The notes under the pieces are model-generated. The model did not search any database, was not told the DNA's origin, and saw only the letters and a program-made list of their open reading frames with translations. From positions 422,212 to 486,211 of the forward strand of contig QPGO01000047.1 of assembly GCA_008632985.1 (NCBI GenBank): 64,000 bases of DNA, in the 5' to 3' direction. Below, piece by piece: positions 1,527-58,337 of the stretch. Position 1 is the stretch's first letter, and every line of letters begins with the position of its first letter. This stretch comes from Psammoneis japonica. Lineage: Eukaryota. The position numbers were made by a program, and so were the translations under genes.

Positions 1527-1552
1527 CTGACAGTTCTCCTTCTCTTTTCGGT

Positions 1553-28317: not shown

Positions 28318-28420
28318 GATGTGTTCCAGCCGCACGTGACCCAAACCATGTGCAAAAACAACATTTGCGCAATTTTTGCACGGTCTCTCACTTGTGAACG
28401 AGCTTTCACCACCAAAAGCA
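28318..28420 (+). repeat. Dispersed repeat with an inverted homologue at ~47895-48002
   Basis: TGTGTTCCAGC..CACGTGA.CCAAA...ATTTTTGC..GTCTCT.ACTTG.GAAC.AGCTTT matches the reverse complement of ~47895-48002. Confidence 0.65.
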
Positions 28421-31293: not shown

Positions 31294-33448
31294 ATGAGTA
31301 TACGCGCTCCTTCTGCAGGTGACTATCAAGATTTCAGTAGGGACTATGACGATACAAAAGGTTATGCTAAGGCGGGTTTGGAACAGAAGGCGCTTGCTGC
31401 GACAAGCAGGGATGAAGCCCGACAGCAGAAGCTGGGGTCCATGATCAAAAGCCTGGGGTCTCTTCTTGATGAAAAATTCCGGACCTCTGTTGCAGAGTCG
31501 ATCTACCGCGCTCAGAGGGCATTTGTGGTTTCGTAGATTAATTGTGGGGACGTTCCAGTCAAGTACCAGTAGATCGTAGAAAAAACCTCTTATCGGGAAC
31601 GACCTACTACACCTGCAATTCAAAGACGAAAGCGTACGAGCCGTTCTTCGCCAAGAAGAACTACACCCTAACAACAAAAGGAGTGGACCAGGTTGTCGAG
31701 GACCGAGATTGTCAAGGTTCCTACACAATCAATTGTCATCATTGATGGTGGACCAACTGGTCTGACTTCTACCATTCACTGTACCGAGAATGCTTGATCA
31801 GCGAAGGAACGATGAAATTGTACGAATCTCGAGCTGCATTTGTCAAGGGCGGCTCTACGTTTGAGAGAGCTCAAATTGTTCGATCAGACCCCAGGTGGAG
31901 TGCCATGCTCCGCTATCATTTGTGCACTGGCCTTGAAGACCTATACTTCTGCAGGAGGTGAGACGGACTCTCATCTCTGAAATACTTTGTAAGTTTATTG
32001 AGTTACCTGCGCGTCGTTTCATATCTTTGTAGGGCTACTGCTTCAGAATGCTAACGATGATTATTATGCCCTATCGTCGAAATGTAGACCGACGCAGGGA
32101 TTCGTGGCGATCACGATCAAAGATCTTGAGAATATGCTCCATGTGGAAGTGAGCAACATGTGGTGGAAGGGTTTTGTACAGGTTCACACCCAGGCTGGAG
32201 CTCGGTATGATCGCGAAGACAACACTCTCACAAAAGATGGGAGTGCCCTAAAGATCGATGATCTAATTATTAATGGTTGAGTAAATATCAATGGCGCCAG
32301 GTGCAAGAACTACTACCGGTACCCATGAAGGGTGGCGGACATTGAATACAGCCAGGGACTTAGTCCGGACCAGCTGAGAACTGGTACTGAGTACGGGATC
32401 TACATTCGTGCCAAGAATGAGGTCGCCCCTTCGTGCTTATATATGGGCATTGATTTACATTGAGGCGTATACCTCTCTTCAAGTCCCTCTACCCTTCCAA
32501 ACTCGTCAAAGAAATCTTCCGGAGCCGGCATTTCCAACGAGACAAAAGGACTCGCATAGCAGGCTCGTGAGGTTTCTAAACTCCAAAAGGGCCAGATTCT
32601 CCGCCGTGAAATCCGCGACTTGGATGCTCTGTACTACGCCACTCGGGAGAGTGACATTGCGGTACGGACATTGCGGTACGCAGTTTAATTTTCATGCCGG
32701 TCTTTCACCTGTTGGGCCAACTTGTTGGCGACGTGTGCCAATTCTAACAAATCAACACGGATAGTAGAGCCCATCAAAACTTTGAAACCATCACAAGTGT
32801 GGCACTCTTTGCCACCACTTGGGGTGCCTTTTTGGCTGCGTTCTACTTGGTACGCAACCTGTTCTTGCTCTTAGGCCCTATCGTTGTCATTGGCAAATAG
32901 GTGCAGAGTGTTGTTTCGACGGATTCTCGTGATCGCATCAAGAAGGTGCGGTGGGTCACCTTGACGCAAATTCTGTAAACTATTTTGCGTTTGGGAGCGG
33001 CTCTTGCGGCGGCTCTGGCCTTGCCTTGGGTGTTTGCCGAGAACTTTCCCGATCAAATCAATACGGATCCAGAGCTTCCTGGTTGGACTTTGCCGTGGGA
33101 GCTGTTGGACCTTCCGTGCTGTCCACCATTTTGTTCTTCATTGTCGAGTACGGGATTCGTTACAACTTGACGCCCAAGTTAGATGAATTCGTGCGTGAAG
33201 CCTTTCGTGATGAGATTCAAGACATATACAATACTCTCGAGGTGCCCATCAACGTACAGGAGCTCGAAACGTGGGAGTCTGTGACGCGCGAGTTTCTTCA
33301 CAGGGACCGCATGGACACTGCCTTAGCTGCAGACCAGTACTTGCAGAGTGCGTGGAACAGATCCGCGATAAGTACTACACCGCAATGCTTAGCTTTAGTT
33401 GCTATTCGGGGAATAGCACCGACATTGCATCTCGAGAAAACAAAGTAG
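31294..33448 (+). pseudogene. Degraded FAD-dependent oxidoreductase/monooxygenase-like gene
   Basis: Rossmann-like IVIIDGGPTGL (~31730), then KLYESR..FERAQIVR..RW and ITIKDLENML. There are several stops and frameshifts. The last piece is ORF 32951..33448. Confidence 0.5.
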
Positions 33449-33606
33449 CAGCAAGTAAAATATTAGAGGATTGACCTGGTTGTTCCCTAAAACATGTAAC
33501 ACATTTTATAGCGCGTTTGAAAAAGCATCTAGAAGTGGATATCGCACAGATAGCACGTTCATATCTATGATGTTATCGTAGTCAAAGTCCGCTCTCAATT
33601 AATGCT

Positions 33607-34320
33607 CTATATGATCTCCTCCATCGTCACAAATGAATAACTCTTTTCTCTCCAGTCGTCGTATTCTTGCTCAACCGAAAGAACCTTAAACTTCGTCCCC
33701 GGTCGGAAAATGACCTCGCCTTCATTGCCATGCCTGGACAAGCCACGGACGTCAACCCCAGTTTTGCTTTTTATGCGAAATAGAGTCAAGTTACCGTCAT
33801 CATCATCCTTCCTGCTACTCATGAATGTGCCTTGACTTGTCCGGCGATTGATGGATGTACTGAGAAACGCTGGATCTGAATAAATGCAACCCGGCTCAAC
33901 TGTCACAAAAGAAGGCACGCATGTCCCGCGAAACACAGTTCCGGTAAATATGTTCACACCCGTGCGAACCCTTTTGTTGAGACCTTCCCACATCCAGTTG
34001 ACATAGCTCCGAATCCTATTCTCGCAAATATTGTCGGTGTTGAGCTCTCCGGTTCGAAGAAAACAGTTCATTTCCTTGTACCTGGTGCTTGTGTACTCGT
34101 ATATTGCCTCCTCGTTGTACTCGTCGAGTTCCGCTCGGAACTTCAGATACCAGAACAACTCTCGCCCGAACCATTCTCGCAACTCCTCTTCTTGCAGCCC
34201 CTCTACTTGCCTCTTTGTATGAACATAGTACCGCACCTCCTCGCACACGTCAATCATTTTGATCCTGGCCTCGTATACCGCAACGAGCCAAAGGCCAAAG
34301 GCCCGTATTCTCGCAAGCAT
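33607..34320 (-). CDS. Toxin-like ADP-ribosyltransferase (R-S-E clade, VIP2/C3-like fold), copy 1; start uncertain
   Basis: AIYEYTSTRYKEMNCFLR, TVFRGT, YSDPAFLSTS, LFRIKSKTGVDV and NEGEVIFRPGTKFKV. The start is placed at MLARIR, which is conserved in copy 2. The frame is open upstream to 34566. Confidence 0.88.
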   Translation of the reverse strand: MLARIRAFGLWLVAVYEARIKMIDVCEEVRYYVHTKRQVEGLQEEELREWFGRELFWYLKFRAELDEYNEEAIYEYTSTRYKEMNCFLRTGELNTDNICENRIRSYVNWMWEGLNKRVRTGVNIFTGTVFRGTCVPSFVTVEPGCIYSDPAFLSTSINRRTSQGTFMSSRKDDDDGNLTLFRIKSKTGVDVRGLSRHGNEGEVIFRPGTKFKVLSVEQEYDDWREKSYSFVTMEEII

Positions 34321-34354
34321 CGCCACAAGCCCAGCTTCACCACCATTGTAAGGA

Positions 34355-35000
34355 ACAATCTGTTGAGAGAGGCAAGGAGAAAACGAGTTTGTGAGCTTCT
34401 TTTGGGTAGACGACAAGACAAAACGAACGAAAAACATAAAGAACGGATAGGTCGAGACGTCCATCTCTAACGGTCCAAACACAAAGGTTTGGTAAGGCGT
34501 CCGCTGAGCCGCAAAAGTTTGAGGGGTGGAAGCAGTAAGTCCTTTTTCAACCCAGTCCTGACTCAAGGATTCTGGATCAATTCTCGATTGACGTACGAGA
34601 AGAACGTGATATTTGTGTAGGTGGGCCGCACCCGACGAGCATCATGAGTGAATACCCCTCGTCCTAATCCAACACTTTCTTTTTAGTAAGCACCAGCGTT
34701 TAACCGCCGGCCCGCCGTATCAGTATTGAACGTTCGCACCGCCATTGTCTTTCCGTGTTATCACAGACGAAAGAACAACCGGTCAGCACTGACTTCCCTT
34801 CACAAAGCGCCTGTTTGACGAGAAGTGAGAACAAGAATCGTGTTGCTTTTCTGTGTTGATTGGGGCGAGAGAAAAAGCGCGATCATTGTGTAGGATGCGT
34901 TTTCCGTTGAAATATCCAGTATTACATTTGCGTACAATGGACATCACGCTTTAGTCGTACGCTCGCCAATTCTTTCCACACGAATGACGTCACACACGAT
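34355..35000 (-). repeat. Upstream block shared by both ART genes (second copy 36611-37265)
   Basis: 34531-34818 and 36783-37067 differ at only about three positions by eye. The flanking parts are more diverged. Confidence 0.93.
34932..34992. promoter_or_regulatory. Motifs conserved upstream of both ART genes: GTACAATGGACATCACG and the palindrome TGACGTCA
   Basis: Present at 34932-34948 and 34985-34992, and at 37203-37219 and 37254-37261, within otherwise diverged sequence. Confidence 0.45.
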
Positions 35001-35922
35001 TTGAGTTGATTAATTGGACTTGAATCATTTGTCTGGCCTTGATGTCCCCGTGCTGAGTGAGTTTTCATTTACTCTTTTTAAAGCAAATTATCGACTGGAA
35101 ACAGGAAAGTTTTTGTGGATATCTGTATCATGTGTGCTGACTACAGAGGTATCTTTTGATAGCATAGGGTACTTCGTTCGTGAGAAGCGATGGGACCGGA
35201 GTGGTGCAGGCAGTGCGCCTTATTGTTGCATTCATAGTGCACAGGACCACGCTTGCAACAGGGGGGCTCAGATAAGCAAGACAACCTAGCGAAGGACTGG
35301 TCCTTATTTTGATCCTGCGCTCAACCTTCGACGCCGACCTGAGGCCTCGCATTAGAGACGTTGCTCATCCATTTCTCTGGAGCTTCCCCTAGCGTGAGAT
35401 ACAGGTTGAAAACCAGGAGATGCTCTGCTACGGTCTGTTGGTTCTGATTTTTGATGACTTCGAGCTCTTACGAACTCTTCTTAGAAGACAAAATCGGTAT
35501 CTTCCATGTTGGGAGAACCCGTGTTCGAGAAGTAGGCGGGCAAGTATACTCCACTAGCAAAAAACGCCAAGTATATGTAGAAGAGTCCCACCATCAAATA
35601 TGTTGCCACCCCCGCCCGAAACACTAGAAGTTGCATTACAAGACGAGATGTAAGATCCAAAGGTAGTAGGGAGGGCGTGAAGCAATGGGATACAAAAAGG
35701 AGGATGTGCGCAAAAACAACTAATGGTAGCACTAAAAAAAAAGTACTCGATTTTGAGAAAGTAACGAATGCACTTTTCTAGCTACTCTAGAGTGAACAAT
35801 ACTCTCTACGATAGGAATAATCACGCCAAGGCCTCACCTCCGGATGGAGCGGGAAGTTTTCTATGGTTGCCTTTTATCTTATGATTCAGCAGCTCCATGT
35901 CTTTGATACTCGTCACGAAAAC

Positions 35923-36570
35923 TTAATGAAGCTCACACATTGAAACAAACTTCCACTTTCCGTACTCGGGATCGTAGTGCTCTTCGACCGCGGTGATCAT
36001 AAACAAAGTCCCGGGACGAAAAAGAACTTCGGATTCAGCCTTGTTTTTGGATTCCTTCGTAACCTCCACACCCGATCGACTTTCAATCTTGAAGAGTGCA
36101 TTTTTCTTGCTTCCGCGAAAACCGCAAGCAACAGTCACTTTCCAAGAGGCACTCAAAAAAGCAGGGTCCGAGAATGTGGCTCCAGGACGCAACGAATTGA
36201 AACGAGCTCCACGAATGTTAGTGCCCCGGTGGACTGTACCTTGAAACACTGGACAATTTGATGATTTGCCCATCGCCTTTATGATGGCATCTACACGGGC
36301 TTTCATATCTTGACTCAGCTTTCCAGAGCGCAGGGCAGGATTTATCTCCTTGTAGCCACCACCGGTGTAGTCTCGCATGGCCTTTTTATCCGTCCTACGG
36401 TCAAACTTCAGTCGTTTCTTGATAGCAGCCGCAAAAAGTACCAGAGCTTGCTTTCGGGTCGACTTCACTGCCTCCCGTTCCTCCAAACGCTCCTTCAATT
36501 CCTCCACGAGATTGATTCGTGCGAATGCGAGCTTGATCCAGAAGCATAATTCCCGAATTCTGGAAAGCAT
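35923..36570 (-). CDS. Toxin-like ADP-ribosyltransferase, copy 2; start uncertain
   Basis: AMRDYTGGGYKEINPALR, TVHRGT, FSDPAFLSAS, LFKIESRSGVEV and AESEVLFRPGT. The start is placed at MLSRIR. The frame is open upstream to 36819. Confidence 0.88.
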   Translation of the reverse strand: MLSRIRELCFWIKLAFARINLVEELKERLEEREAVKSTRKQALVLFAAAIKKRLKFDRRTDKKAMRDYTGGGYKEINPALRSGKLSQDMKARVDAIIKAMGKSSNCPVFQGTVHRGTNIRGARFNSLRPGATFSDPAFLSASWKVTVACGFRGSKKNALFKIESRSGVEVTKESKNKAESEVLFRPGTLFMITAVEEHYDPEYGKWKFVSMCELH

Positions 36571-37448
36571 CTCCGACTGACGAGCTTCTTCTTCAATACC
36601 ATGATAGTTGACAATCTGTTGAGAGAGATGAAGAGAAGACGAGTTTGTGAGTTTCTTTTGGGTTGACATTAAGGCACAACGAACAAAGAACATGAAGGTC
36701 GAGAAGTCCATCTCTAACGGTCCAAACACAAAGGTCTGGTGAGGCGTCCGCTGAGCCGCAAAAGTTTTGGTAGAAATACAAGTAGCAGTAAGTCCTTTTT
36801 CAACCCAGTCCTGACTCAAGGATTCTGGATCAATTCTCGATTGACGTACGAGAAGAACGTGATATTTGTGTAGGTGGGCCGCACCCGACGAGCATCATGA
36901 GTGAATACCCCTCGTCCTAATCCAACACTTTCTTTTTAGTAAGCACCAGCGTTTAACCGCCGGCCCGCCGTATCAGCATTGAACGTTCGCACCGCCATTG
37001 TCTTTCCGTGTAATCACAGACGAAAGAACAACCGGTCAGCACTGACTTCCCTTCACAAGCGCCTGTTGAACGGAAAGTGAGAAGAAAAGTCGTGTTGCTT
37101 TCCGCGTGTTGATTGGTGGCGGGCGAGGAAAAGCGCGAGCTTGGGGCTGTTTAGTTTAGTTAATAGACATATTTGCCAGTAACAGATCCGTAGGATAAGC
37201 CTGTACAATGGACATCACGATTCAATACGCTCGCCCGCCACTTTCAACACGAATGACGTCACCAAAGATTCATCCGTCTGGCCTCGTCGGGTTCAATGGT
37301 GGGGCATCATACAATGAGCCGCCACAAAATGCAACAGAGCCCCTCTAGAGTGTCACAGCAACGACCGTAGTCATGGGGGTCAGCTCTCTGGTCCTCTAGG
37401 ATGGGTTTATCATCATTCGATGAGCCAACATACCGAGCAAGAGGACGG

Positions 37449-37640
37449 TGACAGAGTGCCGAAGGCATTGGGTGACGATGGTCCAAAGACTCCCCAAAGC
37501 ACCAGAACTGTGACAACACGAGTGCTGGTAAGAAAAGAGTGAGAAGCAGATCTCAGAGAGATCTGCTCGTCTATCTAAATGGTCTAGCCATCATCCGCAT
37601 CCAGTCTGTCCATCATACGACAGGTGCAGACAGGCTGACA
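37449..37640 (-). repeat. 3' LTR (192 bp) with adjacent PPT AGGGGAGGG at 37641-37649
   Basis: Homologous to 44612-44803. CCCTCCCCT follows immediately on the + strand. Confidence 0.93.
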
Positions 37641-37649
37641 CCCTCCCCT

Positions 37650-40600
37650 GATCTGCAACATCTCAACATGGAGCAGTGCAGATCAAACCAAAGAACAGGG
37701 ATGATGTGAGGAAAAAACAGAGAGACTGGACACAGGACACGATAAGTGTCCATGCCCAACATGCAATCAAACAAAGGGGCAATGCGCAGCAGGGAGGCCA
37801 CCGCGGAAAAAAATGTCAACAGCAGTGTCCCATCATGCGTCGAGCGTGGCGAGCGTGTGGCACCCAGCCAAGAGCCTTGGCAAGGTCATCGCCAGGGTTG
37901 ACAATGCCAGGGATGTGTCTTGTGACAATCTTGCCCGTGTCCTTCCATTCTTGGATCGCAAAAAACTGGATCTCAATGTGACGGGAGCGCTCGGTCGGGA
38001 TCGAATGGTTGATGATCTTGATCGCCGATTCGTCGTCAATGTGTGACGGGGTTGGCATCGTCTGAGGGAAGCCCAGGTCTTGCAGGACATGACAAAGGTA
38101 AAGGACATGCTTGGCAGCAGTGCCAGCTGCACAGAATTCAGCTTCTGTGGAACTCGCAGCTGTCACCGATTGGGTCTTACATCGAAAAGACACAGCAGCA
38201 CCAGCCAATGTGCAAGCACAGCCAGTCGTAGAGCGACGGTTGCGGAGGTCATTGCCACACGCAGCATCCAAGAAAGCAACAAGTTGATGATCACATTCAG
38301 GACAAGGGAACGGTGGTAAGGTTGGGTCCGGAGTGAGACATTCAAAGGGGCAGGCGGGTGGTTTCGGGTCTCGGGCAGGCTTCTTGCAGTTCAATTCCCA
38401 ATGTTTGGTGCGGCGAAGGCACTTGCATGTTCCCTTGAGCGCGTCACAGTGAACCACAGCGGGGCAAGTAGAGAACTTGGATAGAGCAGTGACACCATGC
38501 CCAACATCCAATTGACAGACAACGCGTGCATGCAACAATTCACCAAGTGGAGTGCGGCACCCGAATCCAGCAGCTTGTTGCAACTCCGCATGCTCTGGGG
38601 TTCCTTCAGCTGGACCAATGGCAGTGCACAGTTCGCGAACAGAGTCGACCGGGAGAGGTGCAGCCTTGCAGTCATCAGCAAGTTCCTCGTCCGTTGGTGT
38701 GACCAACCATGCGAGGCACAAACCCGATCTGTGTGGCTGTGAACAGCAATGCCAATGGAGTCATCATGTTGATGAACATCCACACCATTGAACTCTTCAA
38801 TCATGCCAAGATGCTTGAAGGGCGGAGAAGATTCCGATTCCAATTGGAGGGCCTTGCCAATCTTGTCGTAGATCTTGATCGCAACAGATTCTTCAGGACA
38901 AGCGAGGGAGAAATCGTCAACCTGACGAAGGAGCAACACCTTGTGTCCTTCAAAGGCAGCAGAACAAATGCATTTGTCATGAGCAGTGTTGCGAAAGAGC
39001 AGGGTCACATCGGATAAAATGCCGTTGATGTGTGTCTCCCAGAGCACGCCGGCTTCTGGGTGTCCTTGAAGTGCATGTTGCATCGGAAGCACCATGCTCC
39101 TGTCCAAATCAACACCAAAACGAGCCTTGCACCATGCAGCACAGGCTTATCTGCAGCAATGTAGACAGGGTGTGACGGCCGTGGAGAATGTGCACAGGCG
39201 TCACGAGCATCACCACCAAACACAGGATAGCTCATGGTTGCAGCAAGAGCAAAAAACATCCGTTGGACGGTTGTTTGACACAGGAGGAGCAGGTCGAGTG
39301 CAGGCGATGTAGAATCGACACAGCACGGGGAGATCCATCACAACATTGTCGGGAGCGCCGTGCACCATCATGCTTGAGGTCACATTGCCAATGTGGACGA
39401 AGTGCGACAGCATCCTTGGGTCTTTAATCGGTGCACCAAACATCCCCAACTCATGAAACTGGTCGAGTTGCTTGAATTCACCTGCATGCCATTCGGGCCA
39501 CGCATCCAACTTCTTGAGACGATGGCGAGTGAAAGCACCCAAGGCTTGTTCCTCCGGAGCAATGGCGTGAGATGAGACAGCACAGATGTTTGCTGTGCCA
39601 TTGTCACAATCGACACAGAATGGCGGAGGGACATCATTGTCGTCCGCATCGGAGAAATCAATGTCAAGGTGACGGATGGCTGCAATGGCACGTGTGTGGT
39701 GTTGGTGATTTCCGGGACGTGCTCATCATCAGGATCAGGAGTCGGAGTGTGTGTGTTGTGTTCCATCAGAGCACGTTGCAGAGCTTGAGAGTCCAATCGA
39801 CGTTCCGGCGCAAATTCGATTTCAAAATGAGTCTTGCCGGAATCACATGCCTGTTGAAACCGTTTGACAGCCTCCTCTGCCGTGAAGACAGGATGATGAT
39901 CGATCGATGCCACGCACGCACCCTTGATCTTGTTGCAAGTTGCCTTCAAAGAAGAGAAAAGACGCGCAGCAGGAGAACCACATTTGACATCAGATGCAAA
40001 AACTCGTTGACAGAGTTCATCCGTAGCCAAAGAAAGTCCAAACGTCAGATCAGGAAACGGTCCCTTCATCGTGCGCGCAATGGTCTTGGCAAAAGGATTC
40101 CCATGAAAGTGGAACTCATCAATTGTGGATTCTTCATTCTTGGCAGGCAGAGGTTTGCCATCCTGAGTGCGCTCCAAGTGAACCACATTCGGAGGAACAG
40201 AATCACGGGATGGGTCGTTCATGCCCTCATCGAAGCGAATGTGCTTGGCAAGCTTGACACGGGAAGTCTCAGTGTCACACCAGAGCATGTTCTTGGCAGT
40301 GTCCGGGAGATGGCCCAAGAAAATGCCTTTGCGAGATGCCGATCGAAATTTGGCAGGGCGATGATTCAAAGCACGCACCCAAACTCGACAACCAAACATT
40401 CGGAAGTTCTTGAAATCATCCTTTCGACCAGTGGCAAGAGCAATCGGAGCAGCAGTTTGTCCACGGGATGGCAAGGCGTTGTTGATCCAAATGAAGTGAT
40501 GGAAAGCACACGGCCAGAATTTCATGGGCAAATCGGCACCAATGAGCATCGCCCGAATGGCATCAGCAACAGTCAAGTGACTGCGTTCCACTGGGCCACT

Positions 40601-43600
40601 CTGATTTGACGCATCTTTTCCCGCAGGACGAATTGCACAGTGAAAGTCATCCTTGAAAAGTCACCGAACCTCTGGATTTTGATGCAATTCACCTCCTTGA
40701 TCCACAAACACATGTTTGTTGGGACATTTTGGCGAGTGCTCTTCCAGAAAGTGGCAAAGCCAATTCAAAGGGGTTGCCTTGGAGACACGAGTCGCACCAT
40801 GGAGACGCTTCGTTTTATGATCGTAAACAGTGATCCAACAAGTCTCGCCATTCAGTCCTGCAAAGTCTTTGGCACGTTCCAAGTTCTTGGAGCGCAGGCC
40901 AGAAAAAGAGAAATCAATCGCAAGGCCTTGGTGGGGTTGGGTGGCAGCAAGAGTGGTGTTCGGACCGGCAGGTTCCTTCGTCTGCTTTGCTCGTATGCAT
41001 GCAGGACAAGTGTCAAGGGGAGAGGTTCCGTGAGCAAACTTGGGGACACCGTCCACACACTTGTGGGCATTGTAAAGGCATTGATCACTCGGGTGACCAA
41101 GTGCTGATGCCATAAAAGACGTTCCGTGTCGGCCTTGAGAGACTGGACTGGGACATTCTTCTCAGCACACTTCTCGAAAGGAACATCTTGATGTGCTCGG
41201 GGGATCAACTTGCATTCATCACGAAGAGCTTCATGTTGATGGGTGCGACAAGTCTCAATCACACACGCAGAGACCGCTTCACACTCATTGGCAAAAGAAG
41301 GGTCACTGGTCTTGAGGCGCTTGACAGATGCATCCAATTCGTCGTTAGTTTCCGGGAGGATGAGGGGGTGAGCAAAACATTTTCCTTTGATCAACTTCCC
41401 ATGAATGATGATGTCCTGACTCTTGCGCAGTTGGTGGCATGCAACGAACTTGCAGGTGCCAAGATCATGGAACTTGAGGATACAGTCAACATTGCAATCC
41501 GCACGACGAGCACCATTTTGACGAAGGAGGAGTCGTTCATCGACCAATGTAGATTGAATCTGCGGGTGGTGGCATGTGCGAACGTCAACATGCCCAACAG
41601 AGTTCTCTGCAGGAATCCGCAGGTGTCCGAATCCAACTGGGACAGCTTGATGGCCAAGTGCGAGATTGACAGCAAGGGGACAGGGATTGGACGGGGTGAA
41701 TTCTTGGTGTCGATGAAGAAGGTCACGGTCGCCTGTGCATGCAATGTCAGCACCAGTGTCCAACTGAGCACATCGCTCATTGGGAGCAAAATTGACTCCA
41801 TTGATGGAGCAAGTAGAGTGCAGCAGTTCCGGCTCAAAAGACTGGGTGGCTTGGCATGGGTCGATCGGAGCAACACAAACAGAGTTGACGGCAGCAAATC
41901 CATCCTCAACAGCCATGTCATCGTAGGCAAGGTCAATGCATTCTTCAAAATCCGGCATTTCTGAGTCTTCCCTCCCCTGTTCCGAAGAATCCGGAGCAGG
42001 AGCAGCATCAACGGTGTCGTCTTGAGGAGCAGGGTCATCGTCGGGCAATTTGCTGGTGTCGAATGACACCCTCTTGGCAGCGGCAGGGGTGGCATTCATG
42101 TCAATCTGCAAAGAAAGAGGCATTTCAGCGGTGGATGACGAGACGGTTAGTCCCTCTTTCAAAGTCATCCCGCTGACATTAGTGGTGTTTTGGTGAGGAG
42201 AAAACGGGCAGCGTTGGAGGTCCAGAAACTAGCTGCGATGGCCCAATTGAAAATCCGAGGGCGCAGCACCAGATTTGTTTGAATTTTCAGGGTTTTCATG
42301 ATGAGGGGGAAGCAGTCCTTGGGGTCCTTGGAACTCAGAAGCACGCATGGCCGCTTCCCTCTTCAAGAATTGACAAAAGCGGATGTGGAATCCTTTGATG
42401 TACGGGTTGTTCTTCAAGACTGGGCAGTCGTCAAACAAGTGTTCACCGGAGCAGACGAGACATGGTTTCTTGGAGGCTTCGTTCAGAGCAACCTTCAGTT
42501 TGTAGACTGAAGCCAAATGGACATGATGGAGAAGGCGGTCTTCGTCTGTGGAAGGCAACTCGATTTCATGCAACTCGTCGCAAAAAGCATCAAAGGTCTC
42601 CAAAGGTGTGGATTCCGACCAGCATCTTCAGCGGCAGAGTCATCAATGGGTTCAAGTGATGGGATCTCAGGGATCTGGAGAGCATTGACATCAACAGCTG
42701 TGTGTCGCGCATCCTCATTTGCTTGGTTCCATTTACGGCAGGGATTGGATGGCGTTGTGCAAGTGGCAAGGGATGGGCTGTCCGATTGGCGGAGGAAATC
42801 AGAGAGAGTCTCAACAATCTGTGCATCAGTGTGCTTCTTCTGCAAAGTTGGAGACTTCCGTTCATCTCTGGCAGCACAAGATAAGAACTTGGAACACTTG
42901 GTGTTCTTGACAAAGATGGTCATCTCTCGTGGATCACTCAATGTAGAGTCTGCATTGAACATGCAGGCACGCAGCTGCAGGAAATCATTGAAGATCATGT
43001 GGCAGTCCGTCAATGATCGATTGCCTTGGGTGGGACAGGAATCAACCAGTCCTGGAGCATCGTGGTCAAAAGCAGGGTGGTTCTCACAGATGATCTGTTT
43101 GAGAGCCTTGCATCCATTGCCGCAGCATGATGCAACAATCCGATGATGCTTGCTGTTCTTGGGGAACATGTCCGGCTTGGACAGAATCTTGTGGAGAGAG
43201 CTTTGGGCTTCCTTGCAGTGGACGGGTGAGTTGTCATCCTTGCCGTTTCCGATCTCGAAACCTTTCTCACCACCGTGGTCCTTGGAAAAACACCACAATG
43301 GATGCATGTGGCATCCAGAATCAAAGGCATGGCGTTGGAAATTTTGGCACCATGCGCGCATCCCAGGAGGAGAGTCATCATGGCATGCAGGAGGTTCCCT
43401 GAACAACATTTTCTGATCAGGGGTCGAGCTCATGATGAAAAGGGCACCATCATTGAGGATGATGCAATCGGATGCATCAACACAGTGACGGAATCCGTGA
43501 TCGCAGGGGACGAGAGAGCCTTGAGGGTGACTTTGCCTTCTTCTTTGCGGTCACGGCATTCACGAACATCTGCAGGCAATGTGTTTGGATTGAAGAGGCA

Positions 43601-46600
43601 TTTTGACGCAACGGAGGATGCAGTGCTTCCAGGGGATTTGGCAGAAACTGCAGAGGGCGGAGCGTGGCTCGACGCATGTGTGTTGAGTTTGTTGACCAAG
43701 TCGTTCACACTCACTGTGGCAGATCCTGTGGGTTTCTGAGCAGGAGACGGAGGCTGCGGTTTCTGCTGGCAGGGTGTGAGAGAGAATTCGTTCCAGTTGC
43801 GATAATTCCACACCATGTCCAGATCAACACGCACATGTTGGGCAGATGTGGCAATGAACAAACATTGTTCACCGTTCTGAAGGTTTGTCTTGATCGTCTT
43901 TGACAAGGTTGGAGTCGTCAAGCGGACTGGACGAGGCCTTTGAGGGTCAACAAGTTGGAACGGGGCTTGATCCACAATCGTCTTGATTGATTCTGTGTCT
44001 GTGGGATCAGGTGTGTGAGGTGGGAACGCTTCGTAGATGAAGCAATCGCGAAGCATGTCCGCAAAATCTTTCTTGGGTTGCATGTGCTCTGGATCGTCAA
44101 AAAATCGATTGAGATCGGTTGTGGAGTCCGCACAAACCGCACTCAGGCAGTTGTGGAGATGTAATGTCGTTGCACGTGCCTCAAATTCACAGCAGATCTC
44201 TGCAATTGACGGAAGAGCGGGCTTTGTGGGGTCGGAAGACGCCATGGTTTTAGTTGGTTGAGCCATTTTTGGTCATGCGCGCGCAGAAATCTGGTGTGTT
44301 TCTACGGTCGTGAAAAATGCCGGGAAAGCGAGACAAAAAGTTGTCGGATCAGACGATGAGGCTCGCTCGATCGGCTCACAAAACAGTGGGTCGAAATGGA
44401 AGCTTGGCGCAGAGGTCTGTGGCACAGCGCAAGGCCACAACCTGACAGAGTGCCGAAGGCATGAGGTGACGATGGTCTGAAGACTCCCCAAAGCACCAGG
44501 ACTGTGATGACACGAGTGCCAGCAAGAAAAGAGTGAGAAGCAGATCTCAGAGAGATCTGCTCGTCTGTCCAAATGGTCTGTCCATCATCCGCATCCAGTC
44601 TGTCCATCACCTGACAGAGTGCCGAAGGTGTGAGGTGACGATGGTCTAAAGACTCCCTGAAGCACCAGGACTGTGATGACACGAGTGCCAGCAAGAAAAG
44701 AGTGAGAAGCAGATCTCAGAGAGATCTGCTCGTCCATCTAAATGGTCCAGCCGTCATCCGCACCCAGTCTGTCCATCATGCGACAGGTGTGGACAGGCTG
44801 ACAGACGGAGGCGACAGCTTGTTGGATGCGGCAGCTCAACTGACGCGTTGCGAAGAGAGGTTGTTGTGGAGAGGAATGTCTCCTGTCTCGATGACAACGT
44901 GGTTTCATGGGGACCACGAAAAGACTGTCACAGTTCTCAGAGAGAGAGTCCAAGACATTGCAAAGCAAGTCCTTGGCTTGCAGGACGCATCGTCAAGCGA
45001 AAAGGAAAAGTGCACCTGATCCATTCTGCGGAAGTGAAAATTGAATTGGCCATGCCTTCTGCACTCTGCACAATGCATCAATGGGAATTAATGGGGTGCC
45101 GATGCTGGTGGCAATGCGCATCGAAACAACCATCATGCAACAAGAAGAGGCTTTGGGCAGAAGGGAGTTCAAGTTCAATGCATTGGCTGGGCTCATCTTT
45201 GCCATCTTATGAGGTGTCATCACAACCAAGTTTTTGCTCCTCAAATTCAAAGTCACTGCATCTTCTTGGACAAAAGCGCGATGAAGCAAATCAAAGATTC
45301 AGCCGTGAGGGGCACCTCTCTCCCTTTTGTGTTGACCAACAACGTTCTCACCAGTTGCTTTTTCCAGAACTCAGATTGCCAGCATGGTCCAATGGCAATC
45401 AATTTCAGGAATTGTCTCAAAGGACATGAAGACATCCATGCAGGCAACTGCGAGAGTGTCCTCTGCATTTCCGTGTGCCACAGGACACAACAACCCCTGC
45501 ACTCATTCAAAGATCTCTGTCAAGCTTGAAGCGAGTCGCAACAAAGTCCGAACCACCTTGTAGCATGGAAATGTTTGCAGCAAACATCTCCTTGATTTCC
45601 AACTGGGCCTCTTTTGTGGATGCCAGAAATGTCCATCTTGTTCCTGGCTGTGTGGAGGAGTTGCATCTTCCATTGTTTGACGTTGGTTCTTTGCTGCTGT
45701 CTACTCTGGCGCTCTGTGTCATCTTCCAAACCAGATCAATTCAGCTGGGTGTCCTTCTGACGGGGACTTCTGCGCATGAATGTCAAAACTCTTGGATGCA
45801 CCCTTTCTAGTGGGTCCTTTGTCATTGCAGAGGAAGAATGAACAACTTGTTTCACAATGTCGGCACGTTGAAATGGCATGTGAAGTCCAATCGCATGCTC
45901 GTTGCGACCACACAAATGAACAACAGCAACAACGCCAACATTGTGGGGCTGCCTGCTCAAGCACCTCCGCGAATTCCATCAAGACACCAAAACAAAACCA
46001 GAAATCTGTTTTACCGCTGCCTTGCTGCCGCCCACACCAACACCGACCACAGCAGACCCACGTTCCCCAGTGCCCACAAAGGGCGGCAGGGACAATTGAA
46101 GCACTGTCAAACATTGTCAGAAAGACAATGCCATTGACACATTGTCCAAAGGCAATGCCGTCAATGCATCATCAGAAAGAGGCTGTTTGTTTTAAGTCAG
46201 AACAGTGACTGACCGGATGCTTGTTACACGGCAACCACAGTTGCTGTGCCTCGAAGAATGGACAAGCCCAGCCACACCACTTGGGAGACACCAAAACAAA
46301 CACTGCAGAAAACTAAACACGTGTCTGTCTCCGAAGACAGTGTGCTTGAAGCGAATGTGAGAGAAATTCCTGGGATGAAAAACACCAAAGAAAGTCCAAC
46401 ACAGACCCCGATGAAGGAAAGGAAATGATGATCGGAGTTGTTGGATGAAATTTCTGTCATGCGCAGAATTGCACAGAAATTGTGCACTGAAGCTGCAATG
46501 TCGAAGAGCAAGAGGAGCAACATCGAGACTTGGAAATGCCAACCACCTGGAAGACTTGTGGCGACCCACTTTGGAATGCCGTAGAATGTCCATCATGAAT

Positions 46601-49527
46601 TGCAGTGCATTGGAAAGAAAACTCAAAGGAAGCACGTTGGTGAGAAGAACAAGAGGATGAACCTGACACGGTCGTTGACTCAAAATTCTGGCCAAATGCG
46701 TGGAATTGTACATGGAATTTGTGCTGAAAGAACTGACTTGGAAAATTGCTGAATCACGCAGGATTTAACGTGGAAAACATGCTGACATCAGGAAAGAAAA
46801 TGCAAAGAGATGCAACACCATGGCGGCACCGCTCCCCCAAATGTAGACACAACAGAGCATCCCCTCCAACACCGTTTGGTTTCTCTGTCATTGGCGCAAC
46901 TGCCTGACGTCCCAAAGTGCCCAAGGAGGTTGGCATGCCACCACACTCTCACACGGGACAATCCCACTGGCGCTTGCGCAGAATTGTCCATCAAGACACC
47001 AAGCTGCGCCAATTGACAACAAGCAGTGGCATTTCCTCCCTTCTCTCTGATTGAAGGTCGCAAACAGTGTTCTCATCGTGTTCATGCGCATGGCTTTCGT
47101 CAAACTCTGTTGCTCTCACCTCTTGCCCTTGAGTTTTGCCCACCACTCATCATTCTGATTCCATTTCGACTGCTCGTCTTGCATTGCTGATCGGTGTGTT
47201 TCGGACCATCATGAGTCAACCAATCGCAGAAGCGATTGCTTGCGCTTCCTGCGAGCAAAAAATGAAAGCCATTGCACAGTCTCACCAGTTCATGAGACAG
47301 CATGGCATGCAGCCAATGTCCCTTTCCTCATGAACACACCCTCTCTTGACATCTGCCATGCAGTCGCATCAGTCAACGGGATTCCAGACTGTGCACTCTA
47401 GCTCCAGAGCAGAGTGGGAGCTCCAATGTCTTTCAACTGCTTGAAGCACAGTTTTGCCTCCCAGCATCAAACAGAAACAAAGTTGCAACAAAATCCAGAA
47501 ATCAATTGGCACACTCTTCCACAATCAAGCTTTCTGCAGCAATCAAGGTTTTGCAAGTGTGGCGCTGTTCTGATTTGTCCTCTCGATGCAGCATCGTCAA
47601 TCCAAAGTGCTTCTAGAGAGACGGATCTGCACACCAGCTCTCACTCCAAGCAAGAGCAAGATTTCAGGAGTCTGCATGTGGAAAACAAAAAAAATTCTCC
47701 TCCTTGTCATTCATCAAGCAAAGATTGGAGCACCCAAAAGAGCACTTGCGGCAAAGATTCCTCCGGCAAACAGAGACATGCCTCCACAAACATTGGTCAA
47801 GAAAAACATGATTCTAACTGCCTTTGGTTTGCTGCACTGCAACCGTGTCTGCACACCAATCACACCTTGTTCAAAGTGCCATGCCATGTGCCATGTTTTG
47901 ATGGCAAAAGCTTGTTCGCAAGTCAGAGACAACGCAAAAATCACACGGGCATCATTTCATTTGTGCGCGCATTTTGGTTCACGTGCAGCGCTGGAACACA
48001 ATGTCAGCTCTCAGAAGAAGCGTCTCCTGTTCAGAGCTTCAAAATGAAGGCGGCATTGTGTTGCAGCCACTCACATTTTGCAGTTCATCAAGAGTTGGTT
48101 GCAAGTTGCAAGACTTGAAGAAAACTGGCTCTTTTTTTTGAGCGGTGCTGTGGATCACAATGCTTGGCTCTCATCAGACTCTTGTTGGTCTTGTCTTGGT
48201 GGGCAGAAAATGGGCTGCATCAGAGATCCAAAACTGGCTGCAATGGCCCAATTGAAAATCCAGAGATGGAGCTCCTGATTTAGACGGATTGTCAGGGTGT
48301 TCCTGATGGGGCGGCAATGAACCTTGGGGTCCTTGGAATTCAGAAGCATGCAGCACAGCTGCTTCCCCCTTCAAGAATTGACAAAAACGTGTGTGAAAAC
48401 CCTTGATGCATGGACTGTTGTTCAAGACAGGACACTCATGATGAAATGATGAGTGACCATCAGAGCAGACAATGCAAGGTTTCTTGGAGGCTCAGTTCCA
48501 AGCAACTTTCAGTTTGCACACCGAAGCCGAGTGTGCATGATGGAGAAGGCGGTCTTCATCCGCAGAAGGTGCCTCAAGTTCATCCAATTCAGCACAAGAG
48601 GACCAAAGGCATCTGGGGATGGAGCATCTGCACCAGCATCTTCAGGTGTCTTGTTGTCATCCTCTTCAATGGGAGGGATGCCTGGGACAGTCCAAGGCAT
48701 TGACATCAACAGTCGTGTGACACGTGTCCTCAGCTGGTCGACCCCATTTACGGTGTGGATTGTGAGGGTCAGCACAAGTTGCAACTGATGGACCATCCAG
48801 TTGACAAAGGAAGTCAGAAAGGGTCTCAACAATCTGAGCATCCGTGTGCCTCTTGAGCACAGCTGGAGATTTCCGCTCATCTCTGGTGGCACGGGATGAG
48901 AACTTGGAGCATTTGGTGTTCTTGACAAAGATGGTCCTCTCTCCAGCGGATCATCTCTGACGTAGAGTCTGCATCAAAGACATGAGCACGTAGCTGCAGA
49001 AAGTCATTGAAGATCATGTGGCAGTCCGTCAATGACTGATGGCCTTGTGTGGGACAGGAACCAACTGGTCCAGCAGCCTCGTGGTCAAGTGCTGGATGAT
49101 TCTTGCAGATGATCTGCTTGAGAGCCTTGCATCCGTTGCTGCAGCATGAGGCAACAATTTGATGACATTTGCTGTTCTTGGGGAACACGTCCAACTTGGA
49201 TGGGATCTTGTGAAGAGAACTCTGAGCTTCCTTGCAATGGACATGCATTCATTGAGGCAAGTCACATCTTTGGCATTGCCAATCTCGAAGCCCTTCTCAT
49301 CACCACCGTGATCCTCAGTGAAACACCACAAGGGATGTGTGCAGCATTCTGAATCAAAAGCGTGACGTTGAAAGTTTTGGTGCCAAGCCTGCATCCCAGC
49401 AGGAGAATCATCATGACAGACAGGAGGTTCCCTCAACAACATTTTCTGGTCGGGAGTCAAGCTCATGACAAAAAGAGTGCCATCACTGAGAATGATGCAA
49501 TCAGATGCATCAATGCAATGACGGAAT
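37650..49527. other. TpA-depleted domain 3
   Basis: Roughly 40 TA remain in the ~7.1-kb copia body (hand count). Depletion continues past the 5' LTR and stops abruptly at ...GACGGAATC|TAGGG. Confidence 0.92.
44443..44803 (-). repeat. 5' LTR (44612-44803) plus a tandem partial LTR copy (44443-44610); PBS-like GGTTGTGGCC at 44442-44433
   Basis: TGACAGAGTGCCGAAGG starts at both 44443 and 44612 (period 169 bp). The PBS resembles the copia GGTTATGG tRNA-iMet-type site with TA->TG. Confidence 0.9.
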
Positions 49528-49528
49528 C
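48215..49528 (-). mobile_element. Second, more decayed gag-region fragment of the same copia family
   Basis: Colinear with ~42215-43495 (TPDQKMLLREPP, QNFQRHAFDS, LTDCHMIFNDFLQLRA, DFQLGH), with more frameshifts and fewer CG. Confidence 0.92.
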
Positions 49529-50121
49529 TAGGGCCCTCTACCGGCATCTGCTCTCTACTCTAGAGCTAGCTAGGTACGAGTAGGGAGTCGATGGAAAGTC
49601 TGTGAGCACCACATAATCCTTGGTCGATCAGCACGATGATGTTGTGAGGAGTTGATCGTATGGTGGCGGGAAGGGACTGAAGTATATAAGATACATAGAT
49701 AATACATGCTCTAATCCATAATGTTTTCGCTGCCTGACACACATTTTTTTTGCTCACGAAGAAAAATCGCAGTCGGAGTCAACGAGGTCGATAGGAAGAG
49801 GATCACGAGACGACGGGAAAACAAGCGATTCCATTTGTCGATTCATAGCACATACAAAGTTGGAGTCATGGCGAAGCTTCTCCAACTTCTTCTCCTACAA
49901 TAAAGCGCACACTAGCCGTTTTGATTATCGTTGCTTTGCTCATTATTTGGCATTGTACAAAAACAAGTCATGGGTTTAACAAACAACACCAACAAGGCCG
50001 AACCAGCGTCGGCTACAATAGACACAAGAGAGATCATTTTAGAGGAAGAGACCATGCTTATTCACGAGATTCCGTTCGATGAGTTGTCGGAAATGGGTGA
50101 AGTCAAGAAAGTAAAGGCGAG

Positions 50122-50778
50122 ATGAGAAACAAAACCGAACACATTCTTATTTCCTCCACGATCCATCATTATCCGTTCACACCACGTCGACGACGAAGCG
50201 ACGAGTCCCAACATCCTACTATGGCACCATTTGCACAGCTTTGTTACGACAAAAGCCAACGAGAGGTTGTTACTACCATTGCATATTCTTGCAACGAAGA
50301 CACAAGTCGAAAAGCGGCCGACAGAAAGAAGACGTCTGGTAGCGTCTCTACCGCTAACACAGTTCCAGTTGCTGTTCCGTCTCTCATGACAACATCATCA
50401 TCTTCGTCAAGTGAAAGCATGGATTCACTAAGCACACTGACAGAATGTTTCATTGACAAACATTTCAAGGGTTGGAAGCCTCCGGATCCGAATGCCCTGC
50501 CTTTTATCCTAGGCATGTCACCAATTGACGCAAGCAATTTGCCCGGGGAAACAGATTTATATCTCTTGACTGATTCGGGGGAAGCTCCCTCTCCGTCCTG
50601 TGCTTTTTCTACTCGGCACTATGAATGTGGCAGAGCTATCAGAAAACTTGTTGGTGGCAGCGCGAAATCGAATGGCGGTGTCGTCAAACGATCTTCACTT
50701 CGTCGACACATAAGCACGTCACGGCTGCTTCGTATAATTACGTCCATGGAAGGTGGATATCAGCGCATCGATGAGTGA
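50122..50778 (+). CDS. Hypothetical protein
   Basis: 218-aa Ser-rich ORF in a normal-composition domain, with no recognisable motif. Confidence 0.4.
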   Translation: MRNKTEHILISSTIHHYPFTPRRRRSDESQHPTMAPFAQLCYDKSQREVVTTIAYSCNEDTSRKAADRKKTSGSVSTANTVPVAVPSLMTTSSSSSSESMDSLSTLTECFIDKHFKGWKPPDPNALPFILGMSPIDASNLPGETDLYLLTDSGEAPSPSCAFSTRHYECGRAIRKLVGGSAKSNGGVVKRSSLRRHISTSRLLRIITSMEGGYQRIDE

Positions 50779-52837
50779 ACTGGACTTACCTTACATGCAC
50801 GGTACAGTATCGCCACACGGGCAGTATTACCATGCCATTTCTTCCTGATGAGTGCGTGAATCAATCGCAATGGCGCATATATTCTTGTGATTGCCATTCT
50901 AAATCTCTAGAGCTAGACACAACAAATAGCTAGATTGACCGCTAAATGTTAGTTTTGACTTGAGTTTCCGTCTCGGCGTCTGACGTTTTCCTGGTCGTAA
51001 TCTTCTCGCATCCAATCTCACAGGTTGGCAATTCCGGTCGCCAATTCCCAACTCCCTTTCCCGATTTGGTCTTAGACTGAGGACAGATCAACGTGGTCAA
51101 CGACCTTCTTCCACGTCGAACAACCGTAGACCTTTTCTTCCATCATTCGCCCTCTAGTAGCTACGGCAGCCTCGTGGACTGACCGACCTTTCTCGGTGGC
51201 TACACTATTCGTACTCTGCGGGAGCTTCAAATACATGGTCTGAAACTTTATCATTACCACATCAACACTCGTCCAGGTATATATAGGAACTTTTTGTCTC
51301 AACGAACACGGCGCACTTGGTAATGAAGTGTGGCATTCACCTTGTTAGACTTATCAAATTTTGCTTAAATGGTTGTCTACCATTGGTGGTCCATAAGGTG
51401 CTGGATACGTACAAAGAGCGGATCTGCTACTTGACGAGAAAGGCCCAAGCTATTGGAAAAATGTCATCCACAGCAGAGGAAATCAAATGCTCCAACTGCG
51501 ATTACTGTGACAGAGACTCAAAAAAGGCAAGTCTGTGTGCTACCGTAGGTGTAAATCGGCCGTGATTTGAAATGGGACTTTTCATCTGAAGACAAGAAAC
51601 GGCACAAACCAGTCTGTGAGCGATACGGAGAGGAGGCAGAGTCTTGATGTCGTTGTTTGCCAGGTTTTAGAGGCGGGGCCATGGGTTTCCGGCTTTAACG
51701 CCACTTCCAATCCTTTGAGAGACTTATTGTACGATGATTCCCGTTAACCTGAATGCCTTGCTCCTTGGCCATGTCATTGTGATAGATATCGAGGAAAGAA
51801 GCTTAATTTTCAGTCTCAGTACCTACTCTTCCCTGGAAGTTTGGATTACTTTGACACTTCTTTAGATGACGGTCTTTCTCAGCAATTTCTCAGTATGAAA
51901 CTGTCTTGTGACGAGACGCAGAGAAGTCATCCTTCATCGGAAACACAGAAGAAAAGGTATTCGGCGTTACCTGAAGGAACGTTTCTGCCGAGGCTCAAAT
52001 AAGTTTCGGTTCTGAAATCTTGCCAATCTTCTCCGAGTAGAAGTACTCTCCCAGTCGTCCCAGCGTGGTTTAATGATCGAACACGCCATCCTAAATTCGT
52101 CGTTGTTCGTCTCGGTTGTCTCATGGCTAGTTCAATATGACGTGCATTTGATGGCCTCCTGTTATAGTCGAATGGTGATCCAATTCTTTATCTGGCGGGT
52201 ACAGCCAAGCCCGTCATGACTGTAGGAGTCGTCAAACCACTGGTTGCTGAGAATTGTACTTCTTGTGTCAAACTGATCTTCTTGTTCGGGTCCGCAATCA
52301 CTTGTTCCGAGCCCCATCAGATGCTGGTGGGCTAATCAAACGCCTCGACTTTGTCGCGCCTTCACAACAACTGTTCTTCCCGATCTTCCAGAGACTAGGA
52401 AACAGCTTGATTCGGATTCAAGAAGTAAGGTACTTCTATTATGAGCATCAGCATTCAACGGCGGCAGCAAACGCCATGACGACTGCCATGCGATGCGATG
52501 TGCGGTCAGATTCAAGATGCGGTGTGCGTGAGAGGGGGTCGGTCCTCGAACTCTCCATCGTTTTGCTTTGAATTTTTTTGGACACCTGTGGACAAAATGG
52601 ACACGGCGTAGAACAGGGTGTAATTGAGTACTTGGTGCTCCGTGGACAAGCGTAACAAGGTGTAAAAAGGCGTAACAAGTGCATCACGAACGTTGGGGAG
52701 TTATAGTCGCGCGAAAATCCGCGCACAACAGGGTCTGAGCCGAATTCGAACCGCAGCGCCCGCTTATTCAGAGATGATGTTGCATCGTTGAGCCATGCGA
52801 TATGCGATATGCGATGGCACACAACAATGATAGCCTC

Positions 52838-53110
52838 AACAAAATGCAACAAAGTAGTGTCACAGCAGCGACCGTAGTCATAGGGGGCAGTTCTCTGGTG
52901 CTAGGAAGGACTTATCATCGTTCGATGAGCCACCATACCGCGCGAGAGGACGGAGGCGACAGCTCGTTGGATACGCGGTGCAGTAGCTCGAATGACGACT
53001 TATTTTAAGCAGTGAGGTTGTTGCGGAGAGGAATGTCTCCTGTCTCGACGATAACGTGGTTTCACGGGGATCACGAAAAGGAAGTGTACCTGTTCTACTC
53101 TGTGGAAGTC
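52838..53110 (+). repeat. Paralogous empty site of the copia insertion
   Basis: Matches the left flank 37326-37448 joined to the right flank 44809-~45035, with a single GACGG at 52949-52953. Confidence 0.9.
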
Positions 53111-56490: not shown

Positions 56491-56722
56491 CCAGGGAGTC
56501 GCCTCAAATCTGTTGAAACTCGAACAATGAACATCACACCAGTGAATGAACAAACGCACCAATGACAACATGCATCACATGCGTGTTCAAAATGTGCATG
56601 GACGCCAATTGGGCTGATGCTCAACATGCGTGCACAAATGACATGTGGAGATTCTGTTTGTGTGTCTGCACACGCAATCTTGATTGTTGATTAAAAAGAG
56701 TCATTTTCACTGAAAATTGGCG

Positions 56723-58318: not shown

Positions 58319-58337
58319 TCATGCAATGTAGAGTCCG

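Follow-up and report, generated by a model that had tools for sequence, protein, structure and literature searches.

The 64,000-nucleotide window analysed here, a stretch of contig QPGO01000047.1 of the diatom Psammoneis japonica to whose first letter all positions refer, contains at 37449-44803 a single degenerate and dead Ty1/copia long terminal repeat (LTR) retrotransposon, which is encoded on the minus strand and whose LTR copies differ from each other mostly at TA, CA and TG sites. The parts of the element and its immediate borders are as follows:

37444-37448, no strand: left copy of the target-site duplication GACGG, read directly, the identical pentamer lying beyond the other LTR
37449-37640, minus strand: 3' LTR (copy A), 192 bp, with TG...CA ends and 5 TpA remaining
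37641-37650, minus strand: polypurine tract, CAGGGGAGGG in the minus-strand reading, adjoining the 3' LTR
37768-43597, minus strand: degenerate gag-protease-integrase-reverse transcriptase (RT)-RNase H region, recognised by tblastn with 57 copia polyproteins and by Pfam
44443-44610, minus strand: third LTR copy (C), partial, in tandem with copy B, with 0 TpA remaining
44612-44803, minus strand: 5' LTR (copy B), 192 bp, with 2 TpA remaining
44804-44808, no strand: right copy of the target-site duplication GACGG, read directly

The integrase domain of the interior (Pfam SH3_retrovirus, 7e-12) lies upstream of the RT domain (RVT_2, 1.9e-6; at 28.1 bits, under the curated Pfam cut-off of 31.6 bits) on the minus strand, which is the copia order. 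Fifty-seven polyproteins of about 1,400 amino acids (P0121-P0177) are collinear with this interior in tblastn (E = 0); relative to one of them, P0121, the element has at least three frame changes, a stop codon stands at a conserved Asp, and no intact open reading frame (ORF) is left. In L039, a related element found in a metagenome contig, GGGGAGGG occupies the position equivalent to that of the polypurine tract. A truncated fragment of another related element, with 75.6% identity to 42186-43495, is located at 48192-49528 on the minus strand. The family is a high-copy one, as 3,821 pieces could be placed on 36500-45500 (at least 80% likeness) from the contigs of a public DNA run, X1, which contains 53% of the sampled window words; no public RNA run is listed for them. 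Among these pieces there are 1,442 variable places in which transitions prevail, A>G and G>A accounting for 323 and 324 of the changes, C>T and T>C for 252 and 228, and each transversion class for 26-59.

It is established from the scheme of reverse transcription that the two LTRs of one element are identical at integration. The 5-bp GACGG duplication found on both sides marks a single insertion, and the LTRs of this element were therefore identical when it integrated. They now differ, so that the mutations post-date integration, as an earlier note on this DNA had proposed. The three copies A, B and C present 26 variable columns, 24 of which are transitions, and 21 of the 26 fall within 12 YpR sites. 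Eleven of these 12 sites show TA, CA or TG among the copies, the remaining one being CA/CG/CA, and the variable columns 21, 22, 58, 139 and 152 lie outside YpR sites. The earlier claim that most LTR differences are concentrated at TA/CA/TG sites is borne out by these counts; all the site strings quoted in support of it are present in the sequence and every site listed is real, the list being incomplete only in omitting column 18 (CA/TG/CA). Both strands have been hit, and each copy independently, in agreement with the same note: copy A shows CA at 5 sites, TG at 1 and TA at 5; copy B, TG at 5, CA at 4 and TA at 2; and copy C, CA at 5, TG at 4 and TA at 0, each of the three thus carrying CA as well as TG.

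The comparison of A with B gives 20 differences over 192 columns, including 5 adjacent CA<->TG swaps. When 20 random transitions were placed on B in 20,000 simulated runs, such swaps appeared with a mean of 0.39 and a maximum of 4, and no run reached 5. The simulation also shows that the A/B differences located in shared YpR sites are in excess (16 versus 9.6 +/- 2.1 expected, P = 0.002). In the same repeats the CpG columns have remained invariant: five are identical across A, B and C, and a sixth, which only two copies span, is identical in these two. Removal of the TA/CA/TG-variable columns lowers the A/B divergence from 10.4% (20/192) to 2.9% (5/172), and the LTR dating of this element is inflated about 3.5-fold, in line with the overestimation of age anticipated in the note.

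Since CA and TG are each one transition away from TA and also from CG, the LTRs alone cannot decide which dinucleotide was ancestral. Polarisation of the changes was obtained from the coding part by comparison with the 57 intact relatives, considering the 646 codons that were represented in at least 15 relatives and had a consensus residue in at least 70%. Only two of the 29 conserved Tyr (TAY) codons are still Tyr in the element (both TAC), the others being TGY (Cys) in 13 cases, CAY (His) in 10, CGC (Arg) in 1 and TTT (Phe) in 3. Other conserved residues are largely retained: Trp (14/14) and Gln (17/17) show no loss, His (26/27), Cys (10/11) and Lys (21/22) have one exception each, and Gly (51/54) and Phe (37/41) have three and four; the least-retained classes besides Tyr are Ile (20/33) and Thr (27/41), and non-Tyr retention ranges overall from 61 to 100%. 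The 57 intact relatives have 0-3 His or Cys at 31 conserved Tyr columns, a baseline which indicates that the loss of Tyr in the element is not normal protein drift. At the coding sites where the element reads TGY or CAY, the intact relatives have TAY and not CG, so that the result named in the note as refuting its reading, CG in intact family members, does not occur there. TA was therefore the ancestral state at those sites, and a single copy has since exchanged it for TG or CA.

The context of the changes is strict on both strands. An ancestral A at codon position 2 is now G in 13 of 29 cases after T, that is, at TpA, against 1 of 38 after A, 1 of 64 after G and 0 of 44 after C, and at codon position 1 the same change is found in 18 of 23 cases after T, 2 of 51 after C, 0 of 9 after A and 2 of 33 after G. 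The complementary change follows the same rule: an ancestral T at codon position 1 is now C in 10 of 29 cases before A (TpA), 0 of 41 before T and 0 of 25 before G, and at codon position 2 in 7 of 13 before A, 0 of 60 before C, 0 of 36 before G and 2 of 58 before T. The process in the element is TpA>TpG and TpA>CpA, with very little besides.

CpG decay can be recognised as a slower second component. Of 48 conserved Arg codons in the element, 33 are still CGN and 8 display outcomes of the CpG type (His 3, Gln 2, Cys 2, Trp 1), which corresponds to a per-site loss of about 20% for CGN versus about 92% for TAY (24/26, Phe excluded), the loss of TpA being roughly tenfold faster per site. The element and the older fragment at 48192-49528 are separated by 29 CA<->TG swaps, whereas no other kind of adjacent double mismatch occurs more than 6 times, and both TpA loss and CpG decay leave their traces in this comparison. 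Elsewhere in the window, the stretches 1-2500 and 56001-56500 are poor in TpA and have CpG near 1, indicating that TpA loss is independent of CpG loss, and both dinucleotides have been lost in 26001-30000.

The depletion of TpA extends beyond the element to other parts of the window. TpA amounts to 0.34 of the expected value in the 64 kb as a whole and falls to 0.10 within the element, where CpA (1.67) and TpG (1.40) are raised and ApT, ApA and TpT are normal. A map in 500-bp windows resolves the depletion into four blocks, in which CpA/TpG reaches 1.4-2.1 of expectation and TpA 0.00-0.2:

37449-49528, no strand: TpA-depleted block made up of the element, an intervening stretch at 44809-48191 and the fragment
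1-10900, no strand: TpA-depleted block including a second copia RT ORF at 3-1523 (plus strand)
25500-30400, no strand: TpA- and CpG-depleted block without recognisable domain
55900-64000, no strand: TpA-depleted block, interrupted at 58001-58500, including a RusA-like ORF at 60163-60783 (minus strand)

The blocks have 0-8 TpA per 500 bp, their edges and 58001-58500 excepted, versus 11-42 in the genic DNA taken for comparison (11001-25500, 30501-37500 and 49501-56000). The transitions are sharp. In the block 37449-49528 there are 0-6 TpA per 500 bp (windows 37501 to 49001) versus 17 in window 37001 and 29 in window 49501; on the flank side, LTR A is separated from the nearest TpA by 18 bp, and at the other end TpA restarts at 49529, the base right after the fragment. 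The blocks have a slightly raised GC content (0.48-0.53 versus 0.455-0.48), and CpG is depleted in the older ones (0.04-0.5 of expectation). Duplicated genic DNA, such as 34335-34805 and 36591-37058 among others, retains its TpA, with 18/18, 11/12 and 22/24 TpA in the two members of three repeat pairs, and only 7/35, 2/16 and 9/117 of the mismatches in such genic repeats are found at TA/CA/TG sites, versus 15/20 between LTRs A and B. As the genic repeats keep their TpA, duplication as such is not the trigger. The process is confined to mobile DNA, and the neighbouring DNA is normal.

The erasure of TpA also modifies the reading frames. In the blocks TGA exceeds TAA and TAG together about five- to thirteen-fold, the two being about equal in genic DNA, and the six frames of the element contain 344 TGA versus 24 TAA and 27 TAG (51). 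With TAA and TAG erased, TGA is almost the sole stop codon, and this accounts for the long ORFs on both strands, ORFs of more than 100 amino acids being present in most frames of the TpA-poor blocks. Domain searches fail on most of these blocks. Pfam and PHROG searches with ORFs of the other blocks mostly returned no match: one set of 18 ORFs gave RVT_2 (3-1523) and a sub-threshold Lamin Tail Domain (7540-8193), a set of 71 matched only DUF6824, Lamin Tail Domain and RusA, and a set of 44 yielded one RusA-like match.

The RusA-like ORF, a degraded one, resembles a Holliday-junction resolvase (Pfam RusA 2e-7, PHROG 140 3e-8) and lies in a block depleted of both TpA and CpG. A word-based protein search found no relatives of it, and the ORF may be what is left of a DNA element or of a DNA virus that had integrated. 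In the same block, 58001-58500 has near-normal TpA (21 TpA, 0.42 of expectation) and may either have been inserted later or belong to the host DNA, and a run of 7 N at 60080-60086 marks an assembly gap. The first block contains a DUF6824 ORF (3e-17) at 1801-2271 on the minus strand, as well as Lamin Tail Domain matches (2e-9) in ORFs within 7208-8193, also on the minus strand, which cross a 105-bp tandem repeat at 7373-7582. In the genic DNA, the tandem ORFs 33610-34641 and 35926-36894 (both on the minus strand) are paralogues with NAD:arginine ADP-ribosyltransferase domains (ART / ADPrib_exo_Tox); they constitute a 2.25-kb tandem duplication that adjoins the element and has a normal TpA content. 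An uninterrupted metacaspase (Peptidase_C14) gene is located at 14294-15199 on the minus strand. Its best named relatives belong to Nitzschia, Fistulifera, Seminavis, Grammatophora and Phaeodactylum, with 56-62% identity (best hit overall, 74%), a close homologue lies in protein-atlas clusters that are mostly Bacillariophyta, and the named relatives of the polyprotein are diatom proteins as well. On this protein homology the host is placed among the diatoms, and it is not Bigelowiella natans.

The signature is repeated in other elements. The ORF at 3-1523 (507 amino acids, RVT_2 2e-30), which is cut by the start of the window, belongs to a second copia family and shows TpA at 0.12-0.29 of expectation with CpG kept. 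This family was analysed with 150 relatives of its own; only 1 of 6 conserved Tyr is left, 4 of the others having become His and 1 Cys, and all 10 of 10 conserved Arg are still CGN. Over the matched part of 80 related metagenome loci (L001-L080), TpA lies between 0.16 and 0.80 of expectation. After dropping four duplicates, the remaining 76 loci provide 1,766 conserved Tyr sites. Tyr is kept at 1,385 of these and replaced by Cys at 159, by His at 107 and by other residues at 115. The His/Cys fraction goes up as TpA goes down (Spearman -0.70, 76 loci), and the conversion of Tyr to His or Cys reaches at least 20% in 25 loci and is zero in 23. At the extremes, L039 has 10 Tyr, 5 His and 20 Cys at its 35 conserved Tyr sites, and L002 retains Tyr at 39 of 39. 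L039 is a complete element, flanked by a target-site duplication (CCCTC) that is particular to it; 11 of the approximately 15 differences between its LTRs (at about 2750-2957 and 10859-11066) are at TA/CA/TG sites, with both polarities in both LTRs. These LTRs are less depleted in TpA (0.69-0.77) than the interior of the same element (0.28). Intact relatives, by comparison, have TpA at 0.6-0.8 of expectation and a normal Tyr content. No excess of Tyr-to-His/Cys change was found in the proteins of Nitzschia inconspicua, Fistulifera solaris and Cylindrotheca fusiformis, which are intact gene models and as such uninformative on degraded copies in those species.

The only description of a comparable process found in the literature searched is a 2026 preprint on the chlorarachniophyte Bigelowiella natans (Mettrop et al., bioRxiv, 10.64898/2026.01.13.699255). 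According to its accessible text, 230 of 231 new mutations that arose in two integrated viral regions of mutation-accumulation lines were A>G or T>C, all of them at TpA, at about 6e-7 per site per generation and with only some lines affected, and the TpA-poor coding sequences of that genome are enriched for reverse transcriptase and DDE domains (10.64898/2026.01.13.699255). Its authors put forward an ADAT2-like DNA adenine deaminase, which is a prediction only (10.64898/2026.01.13.699255). As far as this text goes, the likeness is close: in both cases the changes are only A:T>G:C at TpA, give TpG or CpA depending on the strand, occur in chromosomal DNA and are confined to foreign or mobile sequences, and the TpA-poor, CpA+TpG-rich windows of B. 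natans cluster like the blocks described here (10.64898/2026.01.13.699255). On the other hand, the host studied here is a diatom (a stramenopile) and not a rhizarian, the target is an LTR retrotransposon whose LTR pairs allow the timing to be read, and the depletion is far deeper, with TpA at 0.00-0.1 of expectation versus the 0.45 given in the accessible text for the B. natans viral region (10.64898/2026.01.13.699255).

The explanation that we favour, with a probability of roughly 80%, is a post-integration, context-specific TpA-to-TpG/CpA hypermutation of mobile DNA in the diatom chromosome. The element integrated with identical LTRs, after which its TpA was converted into TpG or CpA by transitions from A:T to G:C, whichever the strand, each LTR copy being hit independently. 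The same activity has removed TpA nearly completely from every transposon block of the window and stops at the element borders. The data show the pattern, its direction away from TA, its TpA specificity, its action on both strands, its timing after integration and its confinement to mobile DNA; they suggest that silenced mobile DNA is targeted by an enzyme-driven hypermutation like the one seen to arise de novo in the mutation-accumulation lines of B. natans. The most likely chemistry would be the conversion of adenine to hypoxanthine in DNA by a putative TadA/ADAT2-like deaminase. The natural substrate of ADAT2/TadA is A34 of tRNA, which is preceded by a conserved U33, and this context would fit the preference for TpA. 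Aiming of the enzyme by chromatin state or by small RNA can be put forward only as a guess.

Several observations weigh against this explanation or narrow its basis. Five of the 12 LTR sites show CA and TG only and are compatible with a CG ancestor too, and the TA ancestry of the LTR sites in general comes from parsimony and from the coding part, and not from direct observation. The element and the older fragment differ at 41 sites that are CG in one and CA or TG in the other, which reveals that CpG decay has been at work as well. When 48 polarised changes were put to a runs test, no strand-coordinated clustering of TG-type and CA-type changes emerged (19 runs versus 23 expected, P = 0.14), which thus gives no sign of processive single-strand events. 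In L039 the canonical TG...CA ends are found in the 3' LTR, whereas the 5' LTR starts and ends with TA, and at least two changes in that element therefore probably ran towards TA. The metagenome loci come from contigs without host assignment. Finally, the B. natans process has been seen de novo and has a candidate enzyme, according to the accessible text of the preprint, whereas here we infer the process from LTR differences in duplication-flanked insertions.

Among the alternatives, the one that survives best concerns the base attacked. Thymine, and not adenine, would be the target if an oxidised or modified T at TpA mispaired with G, or if error-prone repair followed a TpA-directed mark. Because TpA is palindromic, the sequence cannot separate T>C from A>G, and modified thymines occur in other protist groups. 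The U33-A34 context of ADAT2/TadA favours adenine deamination, no observation made here counters the thymine route directly, and we regard that route as the less likely chemistry, to be kept in mind at odds of a few to one against.

A second alternative places the editing before integration, either as A-to-I change in the element RNA or as deamination of the cDNA, the daughter copies inheriting the result. This would account for the exact end of TpA loss at the element borders, and a mild sense-strand bias speaks for it: in the 76 metagenome loci Tyr-to-Cys exceeds Tyr-to-His (159 versus 107, P = 0.0017). The Cys excess also hints at a greater exposure to the process of A on the sense (non-template) strand, for which transcription may be the reason. 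The scheme of retroviral replication establishes, though, that after RNA editing the LTRs match and show a single polarity. Those of one duplication-flanked insertion differ here at 20/192 columns with both polarities in each, and those of L039 behave alike. In addition, blocks without a recognisable retroelement, including that of the RusA-like gene, are equally poor in TpA. The accessible text of the B. natans preprint bears on both sides, reporting that editing of the ADAR type favours a 5' U and that the process in that species hits integrated DNA viruses in growing cultures (10.64898/2026.01.13.699255). Pre-integration editing is quite improbable as the origin of the pattern, though it may have contributed to it as well.

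Ordinary decay of methylated CpG, in which the variable sites would have been CG that turned into TG or CA and reached TA by double hits, is very improbable as the main cause. CG, like TA, yields CA and TG by single transitions, and the decay draws some support from the five LTR sites with CA and TG only, from the low CpG of the older blocks, from the 41 CG-versus-CA/TG sites between element and fragment and from the 8 of 48 conserved Arg with CpG-type outcomes. The coding relatives, which have TAY and not CGN at the sites that are now TGY or CAY, contradict it, as do the six LTR CpGs that stayed unchanged while 11 TA-type sites varied. TA, moreover, is present at 6 of the 12 sites and is unreachable from CG in one CpG-specific deamination step. 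TpA has been lost with CpG intact at 1-2500 and 56001-56500 and in the second copia family with its 10/10 CGN Arg codons, and CpG decay would not drive TpA to 0.00-0.1 of expectation.

An artefact or a non-mutational bias is scarcely credible, since the slightly higher GC of the blocks, which would suit it, is set against a 451-base public-run contig that spans the junction of the flank with LTR A (37107-37557) with 0 differences and against the same signature in independently assembled metagenome contigs, both of which disfavour base-calling errors at modified bases, against the TpA of 0.6-0.8 of expectation and normal Tyr of intact relatives, which disfavour a natively TA-poor element, and against the undepleted ApT, ApA and TpT and the rarity of A/T changes outside TpA, which disfavour GC-biased gene conversion.

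Targeted hypermutation of mobile DNA has been known as C-to-T editing, by fungal repeat-induced point mutation (RIP) and by APOBEC in animals. RIP consists of C>T changes mainly at CpA and is triggered by duplication. The post-integration TpA process resembles it in producing transitions at one dinucleotide of mobile or repeated DNA, on both strands and after integration, and in inflating the divergence between copies. Unlike RIP, which creates TpA, it destroys TpA and creates CpA/TpG, and the 2.25-kb tandem duplication and other genic repeats are untouched here. RIP itself was considered and rejected as an explanation, as TpA in the blocks (0.00-0.2) is not enriched, the change runs away from TA and duplicated genic DNA is intact. 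Methylated-CpG decay is similar in that a palindromic YpR dinucleotide gives CA or TG on either strand, and differs in starting at CG and in involving cytosine deamination. With ADAR and APOBEC hypermutation the process shares a single, deaminase-type transition class with a neighbour preference (5' U for ADAR) in retroelement copies; unlike it, ADAR and APOBEC work at a pre-integration stage, on RNA or cDNA, and leave one polarity and matching LTRs, the opposite of the two polarities and differing LTRs observed here.

No report of TpA-specific hypermutation in diatoms was found in the literature searched, subscription-only papers and preprint supplements lying outside its view, and term searches within the accessible text of PMC2806351 and PMC9998398 did not find TpA hypermutation either. 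What is new relative to B. natans is the diatom host, the LTR-retrotransposon target, the much deeper depletion and the post-integration timing obtained from LTR pairs, the mechanism being one that we infer. LTR pairs offer a simple means, which needs only an assembly, to demonstrate post-integration action and to measure its rate versus CpG decay. There are also practical effects: LTR ages are inflated about 3.5-fold, transposon proteins lose their Tyr, domain searches fail, and the erasure of TAA and TAG opens long spurious ORFs in all six frames, a hazard for gene callers. Comparison of genomes that bear the signature with genomes that lack it makes the hunt for the enzyme tractable.

Should the RusA-like ORF derive from a DNA element or a DNA virus, it would show that DNA-only invaders are hit too. 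The finding extends the TpA process to major marine primary producers and suggests that it is widespread. In its broadest form, which we put forward tentatively and at slightly less than even odds, diatom chromosomes would possess a genome defence that is the mirror image of fungal RIP, in which silenced mobile DNA is located and adenine deamination at its TpA proceeds on both strands until Tyr codons and TAA/TAG are gone; being shared with Bigelowiella, such a defence would be old and widespread in SAR (stramenopiles, alveolates and rhizarians), and would have passed unnoticed in published genomes.

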